Assembly: GCA_964603325.1 (NCBI GenBank)
Contig: CAZRUH010000001.1
Span: 5,452 to 52,053 of the forward strand
Length of the DNA: 46,602 nt
Reading direction: 5' to 3'
From: an uncultured Bdellovibrionales bacterium
Lineage (GTDB): Bacteria > Patescibacteriota > Minisyncoccia > Moranbacterales > UBA9337
In this document: one piece after another, positions 3,103-18,486 of the stretch
How the letters are laid out: every line of letters begins with the position of its first letter
Numbering within the stretch: position 1 is the first letter of the stretch
The notes under the pieces: generated by a model
The model's database searches: none
Told to the model about the DNA's origin: nothing
What the model saw: only the letters and a program-made list of their open reading frames with translations
Translations under genes and position numbers: made by a program

Positions 3103-4263
3103 ATGATTAGAGTGTTGTTTTTTAATTATGAATATCCTCCGCTGGGAGGTGGAGCGGCTAATGCCACCGCTTATTTATTAAGGGAATTTTCAAAAAAACA
3201 TAATTTAAAAATTGATTTAATCACTTCTTCCATTGATGGCGATAATCATATTGAAAAAATTGGCAATAATATTAAAATTTATCGTTTGCCAATAGGAAAA
3301 AATAAAAACAGGTTACACTTTCAAACGCAGAAGGAGCTAGTGGTTTATTCATGGAAGGCCTATTTTTTCGCGCGCAAGCTTGTGCGAAAAAATAAGTATG
3401 ATTTAACCCATTCTTTCTTCGCTGTTCCCTGTGGATTTATTTCACATTTACTATGGAGAGAAAAAAAACTTCCTTATATAATTTCTTTAAGAGGATCAGA
3501 TGTGCCCGGATATAGTGAGCGTTTTTCTCTGATTTATAAAATTCTCATACCATTAATCAGAGTTATTTGGAAATATGCTGAATTTGTGGTTGCCAACAGT
3601 TTGGAATTTAAAAAATTGGCTCAAAAAGTTAATCCAAATCAAAAAATAAAAGTAATTACCAACGGAATAGATGTTAAGGAATTTTATTGCAGAAATTTAT
3701 TAAATGAAGGTAATGCAGAAGATAGTTTTAGGGTGATTTGTGGTTCAAGGATAACACCGAGAAAAGGAATTCGTTTTATTATTAAAGCGACGCAAATTCT
3801 AAAATCAAAAGGTATAAAAATTGAATTGGATATTATTGGTGAGGGTAATGAAAAGAGAGATTTGGAAAAAATGGTTGATAATATGAACTTAAACAAAGAA
3901 ATTAATTTTTTGGGAGTGATAAAACATAGTGAATTGCCGAAATATTATCAGAGATCAAATGTTTATGTCTCCGCTTCGTTTAATGAAGGTATGAGCAATA
4001 CCATGTTGGAAGCTTTGGCTTGCGGTTTACCGATTATAGCGACAAAAACCGGAGGAACAAATGAAATGGTTTTTTCAGGAGAAAACGGTTTTGTTGTTGA
4101 AATGAAGTCGGCAGAAGATATTGCCAAAAAGATAGAGATTATTTTCAATAATTTTGAATTGGAAAAAAAGATGTCGGAAAAAAGTCGTCAAATTGCTGAA
4201 AAGATGAGTTGGGAAAATATAGCGAATGATTACGAGGCGCTGTATAAAAAAATAAAACAATAA
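3103..4263 (+). CDS. Glycosyltransferase, family 4 (GT-B fold)
   Basis: N-terminal YPPLGGGAANA motif. C-terminal EGMSNTMLEALACGLPIIATKTGG..E motif, typical of the Glycos_transf_1 EX7E region. Confidence 0.85.
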   Translation: MIRVLFFNYEYPPLGGGAANATAYLLREFSKKHNLKIDLITSSIDGDNHIEKIGNNIKIYRLPIGKNKNRLHFQTQKELVVYSWKAYFFARKLVRKNKYDLTHSFFAVPCGFISHLLWREKKLPYIISLRGSDVPGYSERFSLIYKILIPLIRVIWKYAEFVVANSLEFKKLAQKVNPNQKIKVITNGIDVKEFYCRNLLNEGNAEDSFRVICGSRITPRKGIRFIIKATQILKSKGIKIELDIIGEGNEKRDLEKMVDNMNLNKEINFLGVIKHSELPKYYQRSNVYVSASFNEGMSNTMLEALACGLPIIATKTGGTNEMVFSGENGFVVEMKSAEDIAKKIEIIFNNFELEKKMSEKSRQIAEKMSWENIANDYEALYKKIKQ

Positions 4264-4312
4264 GAATATTATGAGATTTGATGGTTAATTTGTAAAATTT
4301 TTTTTAAAGTCA

Positions 4313-5206
4313 TTGGGAAGTCTGTTTTTTGTATGGTGGATTTTATTTGCGGTTAATTGGCTGGAAATTTGGTCGTTTTTGCAAAAAATAACCCGGTGGC
4401 AAATAGTTATGTATATGGTATTATATGTTATGGGAATGATTTTCTCTTCCTATAAGTGGAAATTTCTAGCTAAACATAAAGGAATAAGTCTACCTTTTAA
4501 ATATTTTTTTAAATCATATTTTACAGCTACTTTTATAAACAATTTTTTCCCTTCATTTGTTGGCGGAGATGGGTTTAAAATTTATTACATTGGCAAAAAA
4601 ACAGGAAAATTGAAAGAATCCGCGTCAAGTGTCTTTATGGACAGGTTAACAGGTTTGTGGGGGGCGATGTTTTTAGCTGTTATTTTCTTTGTTCTTAATT
4701 TATCAATACTTGTGCATAGCCAAATTTTAATAATAATAAATATTTTGATTATAGCGGGTTTAATTATATGGTTTTTTATTTTAGAATTATTTAAAAAAAG
4801 AATAATTTCTGTTCCCAATAAAAAAATCGGCAAAACGCTAAATATTTTTATTAATGAAATTAATCATTATAATGGAAAAACAAGAGAAATTTGGAAAGCG
4901 ATTTTATTATCTTTTCCTTTTAATTTCATTGGTCTGGCGGGAGCCAATTATATTCTTTTCTTGTCCATGGGAATTGATATAAATTTATTAAATTATTTAT
5001 CGGTTATTTTTTTAATTAGCATTGTATCGTCCGTTCCAATAACAATAAACAATATTGGTATAAAAGAATGGGCGTATATTACCTTTTTCGGTTTTTTCGG
5101 TTTAAATTCTTCTGCGGTAATCAGTGTGGCAATTTTGAGCCGTTTTATTCAAATGATAATCAGTTTTTTTGCATTACCTATTTATTTAATAGAAAAAAAG
5201 AAGTAA
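4313..5206 (+). CDS. Polytopic membrane protein, flippase-like / lysylphosphatidylglycerol-synthase TM-region (UPF0104) family
   Basis: 297-aa ORF with a TTG start in the track. About 8 hydrophobic helices. Contains KWKFLAKHKGISLPF..FINNFFPSFVGGDGFKIYY, which resembles the UPF0104 signature. Lies directly downstream of the GT4 gene. Confidence 0.5.
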   Translation: MGSLFFVWWILFAVNWLEIWSFLQKITRWQIVMYMVLYVMGMIFSSYKWKFLAKHKGISLPFKYFFKSYFTATFINNFFPSFVGGDGFKIYYIGKKTGKLKESASSVFMDRLTGLWGAMFLAVIFFVLNLSILVHSQILIIINILIIAGLIIWFFILELFKKRIISVPNKKIGKTLNIFINEINHYNGKTREIWKAILLSFPFNFIGLAGANYILFLSMGIDINLLNYLSVIFLISIVSSVPITINNIGIKEWAYITFFGFFGLNSSAVISVAILSRFIQMIISFFALPIYLIEKKK

Positions 5207-5209
5207 TTT

Positions 5210-5296
5210 GGTGGAATGGCTGAGTGGTTTAAAGCGCTGCTCTCGAAAAGCAGTGGACGAGAAATCGTCTCAGAGGTTCAAATCCTCTTTCCACCG
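5210..5296 (+). tRNA. tRNA-Ser (anticodon CGA), class II tRNA with a long variable arm; no encoded CCA
   Basis: Manual fold: acceptor GGTGGAA/TTCCACC plus discriminator G; anticodon stem CTGCT/AGCAG with loop CT-CGA-AA; variable arm GACGA-GAAA-TCGTC; T arm AGAGG-TTCAAAT-CCTCT. Confidence 0.85.
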
Positions 5297-5415
5297 CAAA
5301 TTAAAGTATATCGTTTTCATTTTGTTTAGATGTAAAGGTGCTTACATTATCAGCGAATAGAAATTATTGCAAAAATATAAAGAGGCATTATTTTTTAAAA
5401 TATTGTAAATAAAAT

Positions 5416-5443
5416 TTGACAAAAAAAATATATCTGTTAATAT
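5416..5443 (+). promoter_or_regulatory. Candidate sigma70-type promoter for the infA/ribosomal-protein operon
   Basis: TTGACA at 5416-5421, a 16-nt spacer, then TAATAT at 5438-5443 preceded by TGT (extended -10-like). Confidence 0.4.
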
Positions 5444-5473
5444 TATTACAGTAAAATTTTATATGGTTTAAGC

Positions 5474-5543
5474 AATAGAGGTATTCTATTCCGCTACTCA
5501 AGAATTAGGAATGTAATGTTATTGAGTTTACTCCTCTATTTTT
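5474..5543 (+). promoter_or_regulatory. Long imperfect hairpin plus T-run in the infA 5' leader (attenuator or protein-binding leader candidate)
   Basis: AATAGAGG (5474-5481) pairs with CCTCTATT (5533-5540). Inner stem ACTCAA (5496-5501) pairs with TTGAGT (5522-5527). Followed by TTTGTG, then the infA ATG at 5556. Confidence 0.3.
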
Positions 5544-5555
5544 GTGTTGGTATAT

Positions 5556-5774
5556 ATGAGTCAAAAAAAAGAATTAATAGTTGTTGAAGGTGTAATTAAA
5601 GAATCTCTTCCGAGTACCACATTTAGAGTGTTGTTAGATAATGGTCATGAAATTTTAGCTCATATTTCCGGAAAAATGAGAGTTCACTATATAAAGCTTT
5701 TGCCCGGGGATCGTGTGACTGTGGAAATGAGCCCCTATGATTTATCAAGAGGCAGAATAACAAAAAGATTATAA
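5556..5774 (+). CDS. infA: Translation initiation factor IF-1
   Basis: Contains [62 protein letters not shown], the canonical S1-like IF-1 sequence. ATG 5556 is preferred over the track's 5544 start. Confidence 0.9.
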
Positions 5775-5796
5775 TTTTTTTTAATTTATTTTTATT

Positions 5797-5910
5797 ATGA
5801 AAGTTAGAGCATCTGTGAAAAAAATGTGCGCTCATTGTAAAGTCGTTCGCAGGAGAGGAAAGCTTTTTGTTCTTTGTTCTAATCCGAAACATAAGCAACG
5901 GCAGGGTTAA
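5797..5910 (+). CDS. rpmJ: 50S ribosomal protein L36
   Basis: Not in the ORF track because it is under 60 aa. Hand translation of ATG 5797 to TAA 5908-5910 gives [37 protein letters not shown], the canonical 37-aa Zn-ribbon L36. Confidence 0.9.
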
Positions 5911-5933
5911 TTTTATAATGTTATTTTTTAAAT

Positions 5934-6473
5934 ATGACTGAGGAAAAGAAAAAAAATAGTGATAATAAAGTTGTTGATTCCTTAAATGTAAAGGGGGAAA
6001 AAGAAAGAGCAGTAATTAAAAAAGCTGACAACGGGAAAGATAAGGAAGTAGGAAATATTGAAGATAGCGCCAATAAAGAGGTTGCAAATTCATCATCGGT
6101 AACGAAAAAGAAAAAGGGCAAAAAAATGGTTTATAAAGGTCAAGCGCATATTAAATGCACTTATAATAATACGGTAATTACCATTACCGATACCAACGGA
6201 GCAACGCTGGGATGGTCTAGCGCGGGGCTACTTGGTTTTAAAGGGGCAAAGAAATCTACGCCTTTTGCGGCCACTAAAGTTGCTGCGGATGTTTCTGAAA
6301 AAGTAAAAAAATTTGGCTTAAAAGAGTTGATGGTTTTTATTAAAGGTGTTGGTGGTGGCAGAGAGTCAACGGTTAGAGGTTTGGCTGGAGCGGGATTTGA
6401 TATTTTGTTAATTAAAGATGTTACTCCAATTCCTCATAATGGTTGTCGCAGGAGAAGACCTAGAAGAGTTTAA
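5934..6473 (+). CDS. rpsK: 30S ribosomal protein S11 with a K/E-rich N-terminal extension of about 55-60 aa
   Basis: Core is GQAHIKCTYNNTVITITDTNGATLGWSSAGLLGFKGAKKSTPFAA..IKDVTPIPHNGCRRRRPRRV. The N-terminal extension is MTEEKKKNSDNKVV..KKKKGKK. Confidence 0.9.
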   Translation: MTEEKKKNSDNKVVDSLNVKGEKERAVIKKADNGKDKEVGNIEDSANKEVANSSSVTKKKKGKKMVYKGQAHIKCTYNNTVITITDTNGATLGWSSAGLLGFKGAKKSTPFAATKVAADVSEKVKKFGLKELMVFIKGVGGGRESTVRGLAGAGFDILLIKDVTPIPHNGCRRRRPRRV

Positions 6474-6509
6474 AAATTAGAGAATAAAAATTAATTTTTT
6501 GTAATAATT

Positions 6510-6896
6510 ATGGCTAGAATAGTTGGTGTAAATATACCGGACAACAAAAGAATAGAGATTGCTTTAACTTATATTTTTGGTATAGGTAGATCTACAAGCA
6601 ATGTTATTTTAGATAAGTTGGATATAGATAAAAATATCCGCGCCAAAGATTTGACCAAAGAAAATATAAACGCTCTAAAAAATGAAATTGAAACTAATTA
6701 TAAAATAGAAGGTGAGTTAAAGCACGAAATTAGAATGAATATTAAGAGATTAAAGGAGATAGGTTGTTATCGTGGAATTAGGCATCAAAAAAGTTTGCCG
6801 GTTAGAGGGCAAAGAACCAAGACTAACACAAGAACAGTTAGGGGAAATGTTAGACATACTGCGGGAAGTGGACGAAGAACGGTTGAAAAAACTTAA
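6510..6896 (+). CDS. rpsM: 30S ribosomal protein S13
   Basis: Contains MARIVGVNIPDNKRIEIALTYIFGIGRSTS..CYRGIRHQKSLPVRGQRTKTNTRT. Confidence 0.95.
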   Translation: MARIVGVNIPDNKRIEIALTYIFGIGRSTSNVILDKLDIDKNIRAKDLTKENINALKNEIETNYKIEGELKHEIRMNIKRLKEIGCYRGIRHQKSLPVRGQRTKTNTRTVRGNVRHTAGSGRRTVEKT

Positions 6897-6972
6897 CAAG
6901 TATTTGATCAATAATATGTTTTTTTATGGATAAATTATTAGTTGTATACTAATGATTTACCGGTTATAAGTA

Positions 6973-7605
6973 ATGGCAAGAGATTTAAATCCAAAATGCA
7001 AACAATGTAGAAGAGCAAAAGAAAAACTTTTTCTAAAAGGTGATCGTTGTGGTTCTCCAAAGTGCGCGATGGTAAAAAAAGCTTATGCTCCGGGAATGCA
7101 TGGGCAAAAAATGGTTAGAGGTCTTAGCGAATACGGAAAACAATTGGCAATGAAGCAAAGAATTAAAAGGATTTATGGTGTTTTGGAAAAACAATTCAGA
7201 AAACATTTCCAAGAAATAAAAAACAAACAAGGTGTGACGGGAGATTTGTTAATGATAAGATTGGAGCTCAGGTTAGATAATGTTGTTTATCGTATGGGAC
7301 TTGGATCATCCAGAAGTGTCGCCAGGCAATTGGTTAACCATGGCTGGATTAGAGTTAATGGGAAAAAGTTAACAATTCCTTCAGCAAAGGTCAATGTTGG
7401 CGATGTTATTACTGTTAATGATACCAAAAAGGAAAAAGGTTATTATAAAAACAGATTGAAAGTTTTAAAAAATAAAGATACTTCCCCGTCATGGTTAAGT
7501 GTCAACCTTTCCAATATGGAAACTAAAATTTTAGCGGAGCCGGATACTTCCAGCATTGGAGTTAATGTTGATCCGCAGATGGTGGTGGAATATTATTCCA
7601 GATAG
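6973..7605 (+). CDS. rpsD: 30S ribosomal protein S4
   Basis: Begins MARDLNPKCKQCRRAKEKLFLKGDRC. Includes an S4 RNA-binding domain: LDNVVYRMGLGSSRSVARQLVNHGWIRVNGKK. Confidence 0.95.
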   Translation: MARDLNPKCKQCRRAKEKLFLKGDRCGSPKCAMVKKAYAPGMHGQKMVRGLSEYGKQLAMKQRIKRIYGVLEKQFRKHFQEIKNKQGVTGDLLMIRLELRLDNVVYRMGLGSSRSVARQLVNHGWIRVNGKKLTIPSAKVNVGDVITVNDTKKEKGYYKNRLKVLKNKDTSPSWLSVNLSNMETKILAEPDTSSIGVNVDPQMVVEYYSR

Positions 7606-7652
7606 TTGTTTTTGGATATTAAATATATTAATAATTTTCTTATAATAAAAAT

Positions 7653-8222
7653 ATGCAATCAATAACCCTTCCCAAAAAAAGTAAATTTATTGAAACCGGA
7701 GAAAATTCCGGAAAGTTTATAATAGAAGAATGTTACCCGGGATATGGAACAACATTGGGAAATTCTTTAAGAAGAGTTTTGTTGTCTTCTTTGGATGGAG
7801 CAGCTGTTACGGCTGTAAAAATTAAGGGTGTTTCTCACGAATTCTCCACCATTGAAGGAGTTTTGGAAGATGTTGTTCAAATAATTTTAAATGTGAAAAA
7901 AATTCGTTTTAAATTTTTCGGAGACAATCCAATTAGAGTGGAGTTGAAGCATAAAGGAAAAGGGGAGATTACCGCTAAAAACATTAAATGTCCTTCTGAC
8001 GCGGAAGTTGTTAATGGTGAGCAAATTATTGCTACAGCCACTTCAAGCAAAGCCAATTTGGAGATGGAATTAGAAATTTCAAAAGGAATCGGGTATGTTC
8101 CCGTTGATCAACAAACAAAGATGGGCGAATTAAATTGGATTGCAGTTGATGCCATTTACACTCCGATTAAGAGGGTGAATTATCAAGTTGAAAATATGCG
8201 TGTTGGAAAGAGAACAGATTAA
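7653..8222 (+). CDS. rpoA: DNA-directed RNA polymerase alpha subunit, N-terminal fragment, ending at an in-frame TAA (8220-8222)
   Basis: Contains GKFIIEECYPGYGTTLGNSLRRVLLSSLDGAAVTAVKI and NYQVENMRVGKRTD. The stop falls inside the conserved NTD segment. See the finding. Confidence 0.9.
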   Translation: MQSITLPKKSKFIETGENSGKFIIEECYPGYGTTLGNSLRRVLLSSLDGAAVTAVKIKGVSHEFSTIEGVLEDVVQIILNVKKIRFKFFGDNPIRVELKHKGKGEITAKNIKCPSDAEVVNGEQIIATATSSKANLEMELEISKGIGYVPVDQQTKMGELNWIAVDAIYTPIKRVNYQVENMRVGKRTD

Positions 8223-8234
8223 GATAAGATAATT

Positions 8235-8654
8235 TTGGAAATTTTTACAGATGGAAGCATTACTCCCGTAGACGCATTTAATAAAGCGGTGGAGATATTG
8301 GTAAAACAGTTTAGCGCTCTATCGGAAGGAGTAAACAAAACTACACAAACTCAAAAAGAAAAGATTGAAGCGGAAGATAAGCCTCAGGAGTATGAAGCTA
8401 TTTTTGACGACAAGAAAGAAGATGTTTCTGAAGAAGTTGGCAATGAGAAAGAGGCCGGCAATATTAAAATTGAAGAATTAAAGGGATTGTCTACCAGAAC
8501 ACTCAATGCTCTTAAGGATAATAAGATAAGCAAAGTGAAAAAAATTATTTCTTTAAGCGCTGATGATTTGTTGCAATTGGAAGGAATGGGAGAAAAAGGC
8601 GTTAAGGAAATTAAAAAAGCAATTGGTAGTTTGGGATTAATATTGAAAAACTAA
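8235..8654 (+). CDS. rpoA: RNA polymerase alpha subunit, remainder (end of NTD, acidic linker, CTD), same frame as 7653..8222
   Basis: The frame is open from 8223 (DKIILEIFTDGSITPVDAFNKAVEILVKQF). The track's M at 8235 is a TTG codon. The CTD helix-hairpin-helix is LSTRTLNALKDNKISKVKKIISLSADDLLQLEGMGEKGVKEIKKAI. Confidence 0.85.
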   Translation: MEIFTDGSITPVDAFNKAVEILVKQFSALSEGVNKTTQTQKEKIEAEDKPQEYEAIFDDKKEDVSEEVGNEKEAGNIKIEELKGLSTRTLNALKDNKISKVKKIISLSADDLLQLEGMGEKGVKEIKKAIGSLGLILKN

Positions 8655-8667
8655 TCTTAAAAACATT

Positions 8668-9033
8668 ATGAGGAATAGAAAAAAAGGAAGAAAATTGGGC
8701 AGAGTGAGGAACCAGCGAAAAGCGCTTATTGCCGGTTTGGTTTCCAATCTAATAATAAATGAAAAAATTACCACGACTGAAGCCAAAGCTAAAGAAATTA
8801 AACCGGTAATTGATAAAGTCATCACTAAAGCCAAAAAATCAGAAAGTGATGCCATAAAAAAAGTGGCTGTCATAAGGGATTTGCGTAAGAATTTAAACAA
8901 AGAAGCGGTAAAAAAAATTACCGGAGATTTTTTGCAAAAATTTTCTAAAAGAAATAGTGGCTACACCAGAATAATTAAATTACCCAACAGAAAAAGTGAT
9001 GATGCGAGAATGGCGGTAATTGAGTTTGTTTAA
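8668..9033 (+). CDS. rplQ: 50S ribosomal protein L17
   Basis: Contains RKLGRVRNQRKALIAGLVSNLIINEKITTTEAKAKE and GYTRIIKLPNRKSDDARMAVIEFV. Confidence 0.9.
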   Translation: MRNRKKGRKLGRVRNQRKALIAGLVSNLIINEKITTTEAKAKEIKPVIDKVITKAKKSESDAIKKVAVIRDLRKNLNKEAVKKITGDFLQKFSKRNSGYTRIIKLPNRKSDDARMAVIEFV

Positions 9034-9054
9034 TTTTAAATTTTTGAGAAAAAT

Positions 9055-9447
9055 ATGAAGCAGAAATATTATGAGTTTAATGCCCAAGGGAAAGTTTTAG
9101 GAAGATTGGCAACAAAAATTGCTGAAGTTTTGAGTGGAAAAAGAAAAGTTGATTATGTTCCCAACATAGACAATGGAGATTATGTTGTTGTAATAAATTC
9201 TGACGGAGTAGTTGTTACCGGCAACAAAAATAAGGATAAAAAATATTTTAGACATAGTGGGTATCCCGGTGGGATTAAGGAGATTTCTTTTAATGAACAA
9301 TTAAAAAAAGATTCTCGTAAAATAATAGAAAAGGCTGTTTATGGGATGTTGCCAAAAAATAAATTAAGAGCAAAAATGATGAAAAGATTATTGATTTATA
9401 AAAATGATCAACACAAGCACAAGATTGATATAAGTGATAAAAAATAG
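9055..9447 (+). CDS. rplM: 50S ribosomal protein L13
   Basis: Contains GKVLGRLATKIAEVLSGKRKVDYVPNIDNGDYVVVIN and YFRHSGYPGGIKE. Confidence 0.95.
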   Translation: MKQKYYEFNAQGKVLGRLATKIAEVLSGKRKVDYVPNIDNGDYVVVINSDGVVVTGNKNKDKKYFRHSGYPGGIKEISFNEQLKKDSRKIIEKAVYGMLPKNKLRAKMMKRLLIYKNDQHKHKIDISDKK

Positions 9448-9458
9448 GATTTAATTTT

Positions 9459-9929
9459 ATGGTTAAAGAAAAAATTGCAAAAAAGGGCACTAAAAAAAAG
9501 GAGACTAAAAAAGGAAAAAACAATGATTCGGAAAAATATTTTTACGCGGTCGGCAGAAGAAAAACAGCAGTGGCTCAGGTGCGATTATTTCCCGGTGACG
9601 ATGTCAAAGAAAGTGATTTGCTAGTGAACAATAAAAAGATGAGCGACTACTTTTTTCGTGATGATTTACGTTTAACGTTTATGGAACCGTTAAAAATTAT
9701 AGGGGGAGAAGGTAAATTTAGAGTTAGTGCTTTAGTAAAGGGTGGTGGAATTACGGGCCAAGCTGAAGCTATAAGACTTGGAATTGCCAGAGCCTTAATT
9801 AAATTTGATGAGGAATTAAGAGCGGTTTTGAAAGCGGAAGGATTTCTGAAAAGAGATGCAAGAAAAGTGGAAAGAAAGAAGCCGGGACTAAAGAAGGCTC
9901 GTCGCGCGCCACAATGGTCAAAGCGATAA
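9459..9929 (+). CDS. rpsI: 30S ribosomal protein S9 with a Lys-rich N-terminal extension of about 25 aa
   Basis: Contains YAVGRRKTAVAQVRL, GGGITGQAEAIRLGIARAL, LKRDARKVERKKPGLKKARRAPQWSKR. Confidence 0.95.
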   Translation: MVKEKIAKKGTKKKETKKGKNNDSEKYFYAVGRRKTAVAQVRLFPGDDVKESDLLVNNKKMSDYFFRDDLRLTFMEPLKIIGGEGKFRVSALVKGGGITGQAEAIRLGIARALIKFDEELRAVLKAEGFLKRDARKVERKKPGLKKARRAPQWSKR

Positions 9930-9961
9930 TACTTTTGTTTAACTTGAAAAATAACTTCAAA

Positions 9962-9990
9962 AACGCAATTACTTTTAATTGCGTTTTTTG
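9962..9990 (+). terminator. Rho-independent terminator of the ribosomal-protein operon
   Basis: AACGCAATT (9962-9970) pairs with AATTGCGTT (9977-9985), followed by a T-run. Confidence 0.7.
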
Positions 9991-10066
9991 ATTTTTATAA
10001 AATAGTGTGGTATTATTTTATTGCTATGGGATAAAAGTTATTCTTGTATATTGGATTAAAAAAAGA

Positions 10067-10118
10067 ACCTAGCGATTACCAAAGGTCAGCTCTTATTCGC
10101 TAGGTGGGGCTGACCTTT
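10067..10118 (+). promoter_or_regulatory. Two interleaved perfect stems (H-type pseudoknot or bistable switch) in the lysS upstream region
   Basis: S1: ACCTAGCGA (10067-10075) pairs with TCGCTAGGT (10097-10105), 9 bp. S2: AAAGGTCAGC (10081-10090) pairs with GCTGACCTTT (10109-10118), 10 bp. The order is S1a-S2a-S1b-S2b. Confidence 0.3.
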
Positions 10119-10232
10119 AGTAATTTAAACAAATTTATCAATATATGTGTGGAGCATTTTGATTAGACTTGGAAAATATAATTATTCTGTTAAATAAATT
10201 ATATTTTGTGGGTTTGGTTAGTTTATTGGGCA

Positions 10233-11693
10233 ATGAAAAATATGGAAAATGATATTAGAAAAATTAAATTGGAAAAAATAAAAAACCTAAGAGATGCGGG
10301 GATGGAAGTATATCCTTCCAAAAGCAAAAGAGATTTTACAAATTCAGAGGCGCTGAATAAATTTGATGAATTGGCAAATAAGGAAATTTATTTGGTCGGC
10401 AGAGTTCGTTCTTTGCGTCCAATGGGAGGATCAGCTTTTTGTCATATTGAAGATGGAAGCGGGAAGATACAATTGTTTTTAAATAAAAACAATATAGATG
10501 AAAAAAAATATAAACTATTTGTTAAGAATATAGAATTGGGAGATTTTATTCAAGTTAAAGGAGTTTTGTTTAAAACCAAAACCGGAGAAAAGTCACTTCG
10601 GGTTATTGATTGGAAAATTTTAAGTAAAACATTAAAACCTTTCCCAACTGAGCATTTTGGATTTAAAAATGAGGAAGAAAGATTTAGAAAGAGATATTTG
10701 GATTTATTTTTTAATAAAGAAGAAAGAGAAATTTTTGTGCGACGGGCAAAATTCTGGCAAGCCATACAGAGATTTATGATTGAACATAATTTTTTGCAAA
10801 TAGAAACTCCATACATTGAAACGACTACCGGTGGAGCGGAAGCTCGTCCTTTTGCAACTCATCACAATGACTTTGATTTATCTGTATATATGAGAATTTG
10901 TGTTGGTGAGCTTTGGCAGAAAAGATTGATGGCGGCGGGAATGGAGAAAACTTTTGAAATTGGGAGAGTCTTTCGCAATGAAGGAACCAGTCCAAATCAC
11001 TTGCAAGAATTTACCAATATGGAGTTTTATTGGGCATATGCTGACTACAGAGACGGTATGGAATTTGTAAAAAAGATGTATCGTCAAATCGCTAAAGAAG
11101 TTTATGGAAAAACAAAGTTTGAAGTTCGCGAACATAAATTTGATTTAGCTGATGAGTGGAAAGAGATTGATTATGTTGATGAGGTGAAGAAGCAAACAGG
11201 TGTTAATATTTTGAAAGCTAGTGATGATGATTTAAAAAATAAACTCAAAGAATTGAATGTGAAATATGATGGAAATAATCGAGAAAGATTTGTTGATTCG
11301 CTTTGGAAGTACTGTCGGGCTAATATTCCCGGACCGGCATTTTTAGTTAATCATCCAACTTTTATATCACCATTAGCGAAGAGGAAAGCTGATAATCCAA
11401 AGCAGGCAGAAAGATTTCAAGTTTTATTGGGTGGAGCAGAAGTGGGTAGTGGATATTCAGAATTAAATGATCCTATTGATCAAAAAAAACGATTTGAGGA
11501 GCAACAAAAACTTCTAGAAGCTGGTGATGATGAGGCTATGATGCCAGACTGGGAATTTGTGGAGATGTTAGAATATGGAATGCCTCCGACTTGCGGATTC
11601 GGAGTGGGCGAGAGATTGTTTGCTTTTTTTGAAAACAAAACTCTTCGTGAAGTAACACTCTTTCCTTTGGTTAAACCAAAGAAAAATCAGTAG
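10233..11693 (+). CDS. lysS: Lysyl-tRNA synthetase, class II
   Basis: Has an OB-fold N-domain (GRVRSLRPMGGSAFCHIEDGSGKIQLF). Class II motifs are FRNEGTSPNHLQEFTNMEFY, GSGYSELNDP and PPTCGFGVGERL. ATG 10233 is preferred over TTG 10206. Confidence 0.9.
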   Translation: MKNMENDIRKIKLEKIKNLRDAGMEVYPSKSKRDFTNSEALNKFDELANKEIYLVGRVRSLRPMGGSAFCHIEDGSGKIQLFLNKNNIDEKKYKLFVKNIELGDFIQVKGVLFKTKTGEKSLRVIDWKILSKTLKPFPTEHFGFKNEEERFRKRYLDLFFNKEEREIFVRRAKFWQAIQRFMIEHNFLQIETPYIETTTGGAEARPFATHHNDFDLSVYMRICVGELWQKRLMAAGMEKTFEIGRVFRNEGTSPNHLQEFTNMEFYWAYADYRDGMEFVKKMYRQIAKEVYGKTKFEVREHKFDLADEWKEIDYVDEVKKQTGVNILKASDDDLKNKLKELNVKYDGNNRERFVDSLWKYCRANIPGPAFLVNHPTFISPLAKRKADNPKQAERFQVLLGGAEVGSGYSELNDPIDQKKRFEEQQKLLEAGDDEAMMPDWEFVEMLEYGMPPTCGFGVGERLFAFFENKTLREVTLFPLVKPKKNQ

Positions 11694-14940: not shown

Positions 14941-16410
14941 TTATTTTTTCAATAAAAGCAAATCTTTTGCGGTCAATTCTTTAAGTATGTATAAAACAAA
15001 GAAATATATCATTGTTAAAGCAAAAGACCAAAAGATAAACGAAAAAGAACTAACCGGCAAAAATTTTGCCAAAAAATATATAAAGGCGGTAGTTATTGTT
15101 ATTTTTAAAATTGATTTTATTTTTGGAATAACATTAAATTCTTTTTTTGTAAGATAAATAATAATTATCATTACAAAAAGAGAGCTTGCAGTGGTAGCGA
15201 TAGAGGCTCCAAGTAATTGGTATTTTGGAATTAAAAGATAATTAAGTGTGGCATTTAACATCATTCCAAAAAAAGCAATCCACATCGGCAGTTTAACTTT
15301 TCCCAATCCGGAAAAAGCAAAACTGAGAACATAAAAGACGGTCAAGAAACCGATACCGACAACTAAAATTTTCATTGGTGTAGCGGATAAAGAATATTTG
15401 TTTCCATAAAATATGTCAATGATAAAAGGACTGAAAACATTCATCAATACTATCATTAGCGGTAAAATGGTGAACATCAATTTAAATGCTTGGAGTATGG
15501 TTTTTTTTATCGCTTTTTTGTTTTTTTGGGCGTTTAATTTGGATATGCTTGGCAAGAGAACAATGGTTAACGCATAAAACAAATAATAGGGTATGCGTCC
15601 GACAGTTAATGCTCCGTTATAAATTCCGGTAAGAAAATTGTCTTGTAAAAGGGCTTTAACCATATACAAATCTATGGAAATCATTATTTCATAAAAAAGA
15701 AGAAATAAAGTGAATGGCCAAGCATAGTTGAATAATTTCTTTGCCGGAAAATGGACGGAAATATTTTCGGTGGAATTTTTGGGATATTTTTTAGAAATCC
15801 AAAAAATGTCTAGTATCCAAGCGATAATAAAGACAGAGAATGGCGCCAGCACATATCCGATAATGGATCCTTTTAATTTGAAAAACCAGGCTAAGGATAA
15901 AATGAAAATAACTTTGGCTATGGAGCGGATAGTTTTTAAAATGGCTTGTAAATTGAACTTGTGGATGCCTGTAAAATAGTAAAAATAAAAAGACGCCATC
16001 GCAAAAGCGGGAATAATCAGAGTAGATATTCTAAATAAATGAGTTAAAGACGGGTCCTTCAGGATATTGGAAATTATCGGCGCCAAAAGGAAGAATAATA
16101 AGGTAACGATTCCAATTAAAAATGTTTGCAGAAAAACGGTTTTTCGCTTGATAACACTTACCATAGCGGGATTACTTTCAAAAACTTCACTTAAAAATTT
16201 GCTCATTGCCGTAGGTATTCCATTTCCTATGAGCACAATAATCATTGTTGTTAAAGTAATGACAAGTCCGTATTTTCCATAATCTGTCGGCTCCAAAATT
16301 CTTCCAACTCCGGAGTGAATGATATATCCCGAAATATTGAATATTATCTCCGATATTGTCAACCAAAAAGCTGACTTGACTATGTGTTGAGTATGTTCAT
16401 TTTTAGACAT
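14941..16410 (-). CDS. Oligosaccharide/polysaccharide flippase (MOP superfamily, Wzx-like)
   Basis: 489 aa with about 14 TM helices. The N-terminus SAFWLTISEIIFNISGYIIHSGVGRILEPTDYGKYGL resembles the Polysacc_synt family. Confidence 0.75.
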   Translation of the reverse strand: MSKNEHTQHIVKSAFWLTISEIIFNISGYIIHSGVGRILEPTDYGKYGLVITLTTMIIVLIGNGIPTAMSKFLSEVFESNPAMVSVIKRKTVFLQTFLIGIVTLLFFLLAPIISNILKDPSLTHLFRISTLIIPAFAMASFYFYYFTGIHKFNLQAILKTIRSIAKVIFILSLAWFFKLKGSIIGYVLAPFSVFIIAWILDIFWISKKYPKNSTENISVHFPAKKLFNYAWPFTLFLLFYEIMISIDLYMVKALLQDNFLTGIYNGALTVGRIPYYLFYALTIVLLPSISKLNAQKNKKAIKKTILQAFKLMFTILPLMIVLMNVFSPFIIDIFYGNKYSLSATPMKILVVGIGFLTVFYVLSFAFSGLGKVKLPMWIAFFGMMLNATLNYLLIPKYQLLGASIATTASSLFVMIIIIYLTKKEFNVIPKIKSILKITITTAFIYFLAKFLPVSSFSFIFWSFALTMIYFFVLYILKELTAKDLLLLKK

Positions 16411-16416
16411 ATAAAT

Positions 16417-17001
16417 TTACAAGCTTTTTCTTATTTTTTCAAAAACTTTTTCTATGGAATCATTTCCGTCTATAATTTTCCAGTGCCAAACATGACGCTT
16501 ATTATTAAAAATTGTATTTTTGATTTTCAAATACTTCAATCCTTGTTTGGGACGGCGACTTCTTTTAATTATTTCTTGCGGATTTGTTTTTATGTAAAAA
16601 GAAATTAAATCGTATTTCCTCAAAATGTGATCAATCGGCAAATTAAAATTTTTTCCACTTAAATATTCAATGTTTACGATTATATCATAAAAAAAACGAT
16701 CCGATAAAATAAAATCAAATTTTTTTTTGGCTAATTTTTCGGTTAGTTTCCTAAATCGCAAAATATCAACATAGAGAGCGATTTTTCTTAATTGAATGGT
16801 TAATTGATTTGCTTTCGTAATTCCGGTGTCGGTTTTTTTATTTTTTTTGTGCTTCCAAAAAAAAACCTTATTGCCTATAGAAAAGTCAATAGCATGAAAA
16901 TAAAATATTTTTTTGTTTTTTTTGGATAAATATTCTTTTAAGATATTTAATTGCGTTGATTTTCCCGATCCGTCCAATCCTGATATGGTAATGATTTTCA
17001 T
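16417..17001 (-). CDS. P-loop kinase, thymidylate-kinase-like but non-canonical
   Basis: Walker A is ISGLDGSGKSTQ. DR-type motif is LSDRFFYD. I could not find the canonical Tmk REPGGT nucleotide-binding motif. Only 3 nt separate it from rtcB. Confidence 0.55.
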   Translation of the reverse strand: MKIITISGLDGSGKSTQLNILKEYLSKKNKKIFYFHAIDFSIGNKVFFWKHKKNKKTDTGITKANQLTIQLRKIALYVDILRFRKLTEKLAKKKFDFILSDRFFYDIIVNIEYLSGKNFNLPIDHILRKYDLISFYIKTNPQEIIKRSRRPKQGLKYLKIKNTIFNNKRHVWHWKIIDGNDSIEKVFEKIRKSL

Positions 17002-17004
17002 AAT

Positions 17005-18486
17005 TTAATACATTAAAACTGCTACCGGTTGCATCTTTGCAACAGTGTTCACAATATTATTTGCTTCCATGCCGGAAATTACCTCTTCCACATCTTTGTA
17101 ATAAGCGCTGTCTTGCAATATAACTCCTTTGGATCGGGCATTGTATAATCTGACATTTGATTTTCTTGCATTATTAAAGAGTTGTTTTTTATTTTCTGGT
17201 ATATTATTTCCGGTATTTGCTTTTCTGCCTGTTCCATGAGAAGCGGAGAAAAAAGAACTCTCATTTTTATTTGTGCCAATTCCAATGTATGCGGGCGTAG
17301 TCATTGAAGAGGGAACAAAAACGGGTTCGCCGGTTTTTTCAAAAAGCTTATGTTTGCCACGCATTCTTTCCGGTCCGTTGGCACGAACAGTTCCATTGCG
17401 ATGAACCCAAATATATTTTCCGTAATGTTTTTCTTTCCTTATCATTATATGAGGCATATCATATAGTAGGTCTAATTCTGCCGATTCCCCGAAAACTTTT
17501 TCAATAGCTTGGTCTAAATGATGGTTTAATAACAGCCGATTGGCAAATCCAAAATTTGCAGAAACTTGATGTGCGGTTAAAAACATTTTTCCGACAGTGC
17601 TGTTTTCATCATAACCAAAAAAATCTGGCTTGTTTTGGTATTCTTTTATTCTTTTGGCAATTTCAAAATATTCTTCTTTGTATTTACTTCGCCAGGTTTT
17701 CAATCCCAATTCCAGAATTATTTTTTGACTGAGGTGTTCTTTAGCTTTGGGAGTGTACATATAAGAGGCGTATTGGCCGAGTAATCCGGAGCCGGTGTGC
17801 ATTAGAAAAATATATTGACCCTTTTTTAAATTAAATTTTTCAGCAATTTCGGAGTTTTTAATTTCGGTTATTTTCATTAAATCTAAAAAGTGATTACCGG
17901 CGGCACCAAGAATGCCGGAGCGATACTTGGCAATATGTAAAAACAATTTTGGGATAGCATCAAAAATATCTTGATCAGAAATATTTTCTTTCGTAATCAT
18001 ATTGCCACCATCAAAAGTATTTTCAATTTCATTTTTAGTGCGAGTTTGGAACTTTTCTTGCAGAGGAGCAGAGCCGTATTTGGCAACATTCATTACATCT
18101 TTAAAGCTCAGCTTTGTTCCAATGTATTTTTTTGTGGGAATTACTTTAACTAATTCTTGAAAAAGTTCATCAATTTTTTCAGTGGTTAAATTTTCTTCAT
18201 CAAAATTGGTGCGAATAAAACGCATTCCGCAATTTGGAGCCGTGTCATTTATTTGCGGCAATAGATATTTTTTCGTGGCAACAATTGTTCCGGTTGGATT
18301 TTTGCGACCTTTTTTTGGATGAACATCACTCATTGCGGCAATATGTGAAAACAACCTTTCATCTTTAGCGAGATTTTCTAATTGATTATAGGTTTCTTTG
18401 TTTGGTAATAATTTCTTTGAAGCATGAAAAATTACCGGCACTTTCATTTGCTTCGTTTGGAATTTAATTTTTTGTATAGTTGACAT
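17005..18486 (-). CDS. rtcB: RNA 3'-phosphate/2',3'-cyclic-phosphate ligase RtcB
   Basis: RtcB metal and GMP-site motifs are present: MSDVHPKKG, APNCGMR, NHFLDL, HTGSGLLGQ, ANFGFANR, VHRNG, PSSMTTPAY, SASHGTGR. Confidence 0.85.
   Translation of the reverse strand: MSTIQKIKFQTKQMKVPVIFHASKKLLPNKETYNQLENLAKDERLFSHIAAMSDVHPKKGRKNPTGTIVATKKYLLPQINDTAPNCGMRFIRTNFDEENLTTEKIDELFQELVKVIPTKKYIGTKLSFKDVMNVAKYGSAPLQEKFQTRTKNEIENTFDGGNMITKENISDQDIFDAIPKLFLHIAKYRSGILGAAGNHFLDLMKITEIKNSEIAEKFNLKKGQYIFLMHTGSGLLGQYASYMYTPKAKEHLSQKIILELGLKTWRSKYKEEYFEIAKRIKEYQNKPDFFGYDENSTVGKMFLTAHQVSANFGFANRLLLNHHLDQAIEKVFGESAELDLLYDMPHIMIRKEKHYGKYIWVHRNGTVRANGPERMRGKHKLFEKTGEPVFVPSSMTTPAYIGIGTNKNESSFFSASHGTGRKANTGNNIPENKKQLFNNARKSNVRLYNARSKGVILQDSAYYKDVEEVISGMEANNIVNTVAKMQPVAVLMY

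Follow-up and report, generated by a model that had tools for sequence, protein, structure and literature searches.

Naturally split RNA polymerase genes are known from cyanobacteria, in which the beta-prime subunit is encoded by rpoC1 and rpoC2, and from archaea, with their A'/A'' and B'/B'' genes. These natural splits are conserved across whole lineages and are positioned between structural modules. The rpoA gene (RNA polymerase alpha subunit) described here, with a stop at codon 190, would likewise yield one subunit as two polypeptides, but its break is private to one contig and passes through the dimerisation domain. In classical bacterial genetics, ochre (UAA) nonsense mutations in essential genes need a suppressor tRNA, and UAA, which is decoded by both release factors, is the least leaky of the stops. 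The rpoA case resembles the classical ochre mutants in that a Tyr codon is turned into UAA by one transversion and the downstream frame is intact, but it differs from them in that no suppressor tRNA is evident in the window (here and below, the whole 46.6-kb stretch of DNA that was analysed) and in that it is doubtful whether living cells carry the allele. Hopping of a tRNA over a stop between matching codons, or translational bypass, is known from stop-hopping in E. coli and from phage T4 gene 60, and within the Patescibacteria UGA has been reassigned in Gracilibacteria and Absconditabacteria.

The locus can also be compared with the 'internal stop' pseudogene calls in MAGs. As in these, a single-base change in a conserved, single-copy, essential gene is present in one assembly and contradicted by others; unlike in these, the stop in rpoA comes together with two adjacent private synonymous changes, which is unusual for a lone base-call error. 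No report of an in-frame stop in rpoA of Patescibacteria, and no mention of the sample or run identifiers, was found in the literature. A real stop that the cell tolerates would imply that a bacterium naturally decodes UAA with good efficiency, or that its alpha subunit is built from two pieces divided within the dimerisation domain, and to our knowledge neither has been described. It is most likely, however, that the TAA is not a real feature of the organism and that these more interesting interpretations are unsupported. On present evidence the finding is mainly a quality flag, as an essential marker gene of the deposited contig has an anomaly of three private bases; the rpoA of this record should be read as Tyr190 or be left out of phylogenies and of surveys of genetic codes or pseudogenes.

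The rpoA locus and the position of the stop

The window is 32% G+C and densely coding, and its nearest relatives are MAGs labelled Candidatus Moraniibacteriota / Parcubacteria (Patescibacteria). According to the ORF map and to the Pfam labels of the neighbours in three other contigs (L001-L003, listed below), rpoA stands in the operon context rpsK/rpsM-rpsD-rpoA-rplQ-rplM-rpsI. The features of the locus are as follows, in window coordinates:

6973..7605, + strand: rpsD (S4), a flanking gene for finding independent assemblies
7653..8654, + strand: rpoA (RNA polymerase alpha subunit), 333 codons plus stop, broken at codon 190
7653..8219, + strand: N-terminal fragment as deposited, 189 aa, with the insert domain and the first part of the dimerisation domain (PF01000 at residues 55-170)
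8220-8222, + strand: in-frame TAA (ochre) at codon 190, which is Tyr (TAC/TAT) in conspecific assemblies
8235..8654, + strand: C-terminal fragment as deposited, 139 aa from TTG, with the remainder of the dimerisation domain, followed by linker and CTD
8652..8654, + strand: normal rpoA terminator, also TAA, giving the same C-terminus as in the relatives (alignment end ...LGLILKN)
8668..9033, + strand: rplQ (L17), a flanking gene for finding independent assemblies

In the initial annotation, two ORFs (7653..8222 and 8235..8654) were described as lying in one frame and being separated by the TAA at 8220-8222, and both the sequence (GGA AAG AGA ACA GAT TAA GAT AAG ATA ATT TTG GAA around the stop) and the ORF map confirm this. 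The frame is open from 8223, which makes the single TAA the sole interruption, and the normal terminator of the gene follows 144 codons beyond it. Against the RpoA equivalog NF003519, the read-through product reaches 333.4 bits (cut-off 277), and against TIGR02027 it reaches 305.6 bits (cut-off 227.8). All three RpoA domains (PF01193, the PF01000 insert and the PF03118 CTD) are present across the two pieces, PF03118 and profile positions 45-74 of PF01193 being found from 8223 onward. The locus is a bona fide RpoA by every test but that of the open frame, which in the window is interrupted by the TAA at codon 190. Among the other ribosomal operon genes of the window, the one for protein S11 (5934..6473) encodes 179 aa, with a Lys/Glu-rich N-terminal extension of about 60 residues ahead of the conserved core.

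The stop had been placed inside the NTD fold and not in the linker between NTD and CTD, and three lines of evidence agree with this. Pfam RNA_pol_L (PF01193) is cut by the stop, profile positions 5-41 being encoded ahead of it and 45-74 behind it; in an alignment to solved alpha subunits, the counterpart of codon 190 is Leu192 of Thermus alpha, which belongs to the RTD-L-DK segment; and the column is one of Tyr or Phe in 27 relatives, as described below. The stop is inside the dimerisation domain of the NTD. In the alpha NTD fold, the region of codon 190 is what we take to be the return from the insert domain to the dimerisation domain, ahead of the second dimerisation helix, and because the stop precedes this helix the product 1-189 alone is unlikely to dimerise. 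The linker itself (8325..8470, rpoA codons about 225-272) is long and Glu/Lys-rich, and no other part of the protein varies as much among the relatives.

It could be thought that translation terminates at the TAA and restarts at the TTG at 8235, and that the pieces 1-189 and 195-333 then assemble non-covalently into a split alpha subunit. The in-frame TTG is 13 nt past the stop and has an A/T-rich context similar to that of the real leaders in the window, and other RNA polymerase subunits are, as described above, naturally split in some lineages. The missing Shine-Dalgarno motif is uninformative here, as such a motif is rare in this organism (3/33 genes) and initiation in it appears to be largely independent of Shine-Dalgarno pairing. 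However, ATG starts 32 of the 33 genes in the window, whereas after the stop there is no ATG and only this TTG, which is the plain codon of Leu195, at a column where 27 of 28 aligned sequences have Leu. The break, falling within PF01193 between profile positions 41 and 45, is at no domain boundary, and four conserved residues (D-K-I-I) would be lost by the restart. Furthermore, neither the conspecific assemblies nor any relative has the split, and truncations that are in use recur, as does that of a CTD-less alpha (P0197, on at least 24 contigs), whereas this stop is on one contig. We therefore give a split alpha subunit only a very remote chance.

Codon 190 in relatives and independent assemblies

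A search for protein homologues, covering 5.8 billion protein clusters, listed full-length homologues of 316-344 aa from 80% identity downward, and among the matches listed the sole truncated entry was one of 189 aa and 100% identity (P0042). This entry, the N-terminal piece, has one member on one contig of 52,053 bp, from NCBI only, and is the deposited contig itself. The C-terminal piece (P0121) likewise has one member, from NCBI only, and exact look-ups of both deposited fragments found no other contig that carries either of them. Short rpoA products in the protein database run straight through KRTD-Y/F, and none begins or ends at the site. At the column of the stop, each of the 27 aligned relatives has Tyr or Phe, preceded by an invariant M-R-V-G-K-R-T-D, and the codon at the site is TAT, TAC, TTT or TTC in 20 related loci. 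A degenerate DNA scan of one genome per species (185,579 species) for ENMRVGKRTD followed by TAA, TAG, TGA or TGG had no matches, and neither had two DNA scans of JGI metagenome contigs for the site with either haplotype allowed. Downstream of the stop, every residue that is invariant among the relatives has been kept, and given this lack of decay the change, if it is real at all, would have to be very recent.

Other assemblies of the same organism were recovered through exact-protein look-ups of the flanking ribosomal proteins. The look-up of rpsD led to L002 (ENA) and L003 (JGI), and that of rplQ to L001, with a cluster-mate (P0123) leading to L032; the look-up of S13 gave L035 only, which ends short of rpoA, and those of L13 and S9 gave no further contig across the site. 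The contigs are the following, with the part of the window that each covers:

3511..8251: L002 / L034, ENA ERZ27262668 (k141_213245), 99.7-99.8% identity, TAC at codon 190
8013..9845: L032, ENA ERZ27262649, 95% identity over 1.8 kb (97.5% within rpoA), TAT at codon 190
5370..7898: L003, JGI 3300028398, 2 mismatches in 2,529 bp, ends before the site
8549..10328: L001, ENA ERZ27262668, 100% identity but for a 102-bp insertion, starts beyond the site
4765..7546: L035, Logan assembly of SRR8439172, 100% identity, short of the site
8707..10318: L033, Logan assembly of SRR8439172, 100% identity, beyond the site

L002 is 99.74% identical to the window over 4,279 bp, and its translation across the site reads ...GKRTDYDKIILEIFT, after which the contig ends; its rpoA is open from codon 1 to codon 199. 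L032 begins at codon 121 of rpoA, and from there its frame has no interruption before the normal stop. A comparison of rpoA in sister genomes, which the initial annotation had proposed as a check, shows TAC or TAT in the two conspecific assemblies and Tyr or Phe in the relatives, and the TAC of L002 and the TAT of L032 bear out the earlier remark that the TAA is one substitution away from TAT/TAC. The stop is absent from every other assembly spanning the site and from all relatives examined, and TAA is the normal terminator here. Of the four explanations that had been offered for the stop, an error and a nonsense allele are favoured because the conspecific assemblies encode Tyr and the relatives Tyr or Phe, while read-through or suppression and a genuinely split alpha are argued against by the sister assemblies. 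By looking up the exact sequences of flanking ribosomal proteins, one can in this way obtain independent assemblies of an uncultured organism and answer questions of this kind without reads.

Every independent assembly breaks in or beside rpoA, with contig ends at 7546, 8013, 8251, 8549 and 8707: L002 ends at 8251, L032 starts at 8013, L001 starts at 8549, and the two Logan contigs of SRR8439172 leave the gap between 7546 and 8707. The concentration of breaks in 7546..8707 suggests strain heterogeneity or low coverage concentrated in rpoA. The 102-bp insertion of L001 (1478..1579 of that contig) is located at window 10025/10026, in the spacer between rpsI and lysS; neither the window nor the Logan contig L033 has it, and its flanks are 100% identical to the window, which makes it a strain-level indel.

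The private three-base cluster

The stop is not the only base in which the window contig stands apart from the other assemblies at this site:

8210..8222, + strand: private substitution cluster, with G at 8210, A at 8216 and A at 8222, where the other assemblies have A, G and C/T

In the three-way comparison, these three bases are unique to the window contig, they are six bases apart and all of them are at third codon positions. Codons 186-190 read AAG AGA ACA GAT TAA in the window, AAA AGA ACG GAT TAC in L002 and AAA AGA ACG GAT TAT in L032. The background divergence between the window and L002 is about 0.2%: outside the cluster, about 4.2 kb contain 7 substitutions (4 synonymous, 2 intergenic and 1 Val/Ile) and 1 homopolymer-length difference. 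When 10 substitutions were placed in 4278 nt by simulation, some three of them came to lie within 13 nt with a probability of 0.0027. The cluster marks the rpoA site as a local anomaly, and it fits a poor-quality or mis-threaded stretch. The changes AAA->AAG and ACG->ACA are synonymous third-position transitions, which look more like natural strain divergence than random error, and because the neighbours of the stop are of this kind, the sample may contain a real (minority) haplotype with the TAA. A template-switch or quasi-palindrome origin of the cluster is ruled out within the window, as no direct or inverted match of at least 9 nt covering at least 2 of the changed bases was found anywhere in it. 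The homopolymer at about 5413..5420, in the intergenic region between tRNA-Ser and infA, is A8 in the window and A9 in L002, and it is the only indel in the approximately 4.7 kb compared.

The TAA haplotype could also come from a second, degenerate copy or fragment of rpoA, in the genome or in the community, that was threaded into the locus by the assembler. Three clustered private differences do resemble a short stretch of a diverged paralogue, and the independent assemblies break at the region as they would at a repeat. Against this, tblastn finds no second rpoA-like sequence in the window, the derived segment is matched by no other sequence of the window, and no such fragment came up in the protein searches. 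On either side of the 13-nt patch the sequence is the same as in L002, which would leave a foreign stretch too short to be plausible, and an origin from a second copy seems to us highly unlikely.

Judging from the sequence comparisons, the TAA is very probably a change private to one assembly, that is, either an error made in consensus calling or assembly or a nonsense allele that is a dead end, and not a part of how alpha gets made. The working gene of this Moraniibacteriota population would be an ordinary, uninterrupted rpoA of 333 codons with Tyr190, and a single-base change from TAC or TAT to TAA at codon 190 would be confined to this deposited contig. A fault of consensus calling or assembly may have produced it locally, in sequence that gave every assembler difficulty. 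Alternatively, the assembler may by chance have taken up a nonsense allele that is rare, non-viable or of very recent origin. What is observed agrees with such a private artefact or allele: the stop is absent elsewhere, it is one substitution away from the sense codon and there is no decay downstream. Counting against an error, the rest of the 46.6-kb window has no frameshifts or other stops, and the assembly is not generally error-prone; in addition, the flanks of the contig match the Logan assembly exactly. We infer that the cause is most likely an artefact or a dead-end allele, and the lack of decay downstream fits either of the two.

Decoding of the TAA and shortened alpha subunits

The 39 long ORFs in the window are terminated by TAA (34/39), TAG (3) or TGA (2), and rpoA alone has an in-frame TAA interruption in the 46.6 kb. 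The earlier view that the event is isolated holds, as no other gene in the window is interrupted: five further cases of adjacent segments in the same frame are separate genes (RtcB / thymidylate kinase / flippase; DD-carboxypeptidase / MurG; DprA / TopA). RtcB, the thymidylate-kinase-like gene and the MurJ/Wzx-type flippase (14941..18486, - strand) are arranged head to tail in one frame, with the next gene one or two codons past each TAA, a tight packing that mimics interrupted genes.

Patescibacteria include lineages with a reassigned stop, and TAA might in principle have been reassigned to an amino acid in this one as well. But TAA ends most of the long ORFs, at the C-termini of their homologues and with rpoA included, a single in-frame TAA is all that occurs in 46.6 kb of dense coding sequence, the window has no cognate tRNA, and close relatives carry TAY or TTY at the site. 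The probability of such a reassignment is next to nil, and a change of the genetic code is practically ruled out by TAA being the dominant terminator and by no other gene being interrupted.

A further possibility is a real nonsense allele in a viable strain, in which full-length alpha would be made by tRNA-Tyr read-through, by a hop at the Asp codons or by a suppressor tRNA encoded elsewhere. The haplotype of the stop, with its two linked synonymous changes, resembles natural variation, the downstream frame is fully intact and conserved, and the perfect match of the flanking DNA to an independent Logan assembly indicates that the contig is otherwise sound. Decoding of the UAA by the near-cognate tRNA-Tyr would restore the wild-type residue. 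Against such decoding, UAA is the standard terminator here, and alpha is needed at two copies per polymerase, for which read-through or hopping at a per-mille level would probably be insufficient. The only tRNA gene, and the only RNA gene, in the window is tRNA-Ser(CGA), and no suppressor tRNA was found within the 46.6 kb. In a segment of 105 nt that takes in the stop and the sequence behind it there is no stimulatory RNA structure (MFE -11.8 kcal/mol versus a shuffle mean of -14.2 kcal/mol, z = +0.86). Programmed read-through is not what is seen at this locus, as the stop is not conserved in the 2 conspecific assemblies, the 20 relatives or the 185,579 genomes and has no stimulatory structure; it is missing even from a strain that is 99.7% identical (L002).

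A hop of peptidyl-tRNA-Asp is conceivable, as identical GAT codons flank the stop (GAT-TAA-GAT) and offer the same take-off and landing codons as in the known cases of stop-hopping. Unlike in those cases, the GAT codons of rpoA are ancestral: they are present in L002 and L032, where they encode the conserved Asp residues around Tyr, and hence they are no adaptation to the stop. The sequence downstream of the stop is likewise shared with these strains that have Tyr, and nothing close to the site has an adapted look. The stimulatory structure is lacking here as well, and the product of the hop would miss two conserved residues of the invariant RTD-Y/F-D/E segment. Taken with this evidence, a real allele that is served by read-through, hopping or suppression in a viable strain is quite unlikely, and we would put an ochre that is near-fixed in a living strain, with alpha coming from tRNA-Tyr read-through, an Asp-tRNA hop or a reinitiated two-piece alpha, at the same low level.

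Shortened alpha subunits were also seen in another lineage of Patescibacteria. P0197 (2501..3166 in L036-L038; also P0148 and P0154) is an alpha of 221 aa with a complete NTD and no CTD. It occupies the normal slot in rpsM-rpsK-rpsD-rpoA-rplQ, with rplQ beginning about 50 nt past its stop, and its contigs, at least 24 in number, come from several ENA samples. The rpoA of the window is similar to P0197 in having a shortened product in the same operon slot of a candidate-phyla-radiation bacterium, but P0197 ends after a complete NTD and is recurrent, whereas the stop at codon 190 is inside the NTD and unique. P0197 shows what a real, used truncation looks like, and the codon-190 stop is unlike it. 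This reproducible CTD-less bacterial alpha subunit may deserve a study of its own.
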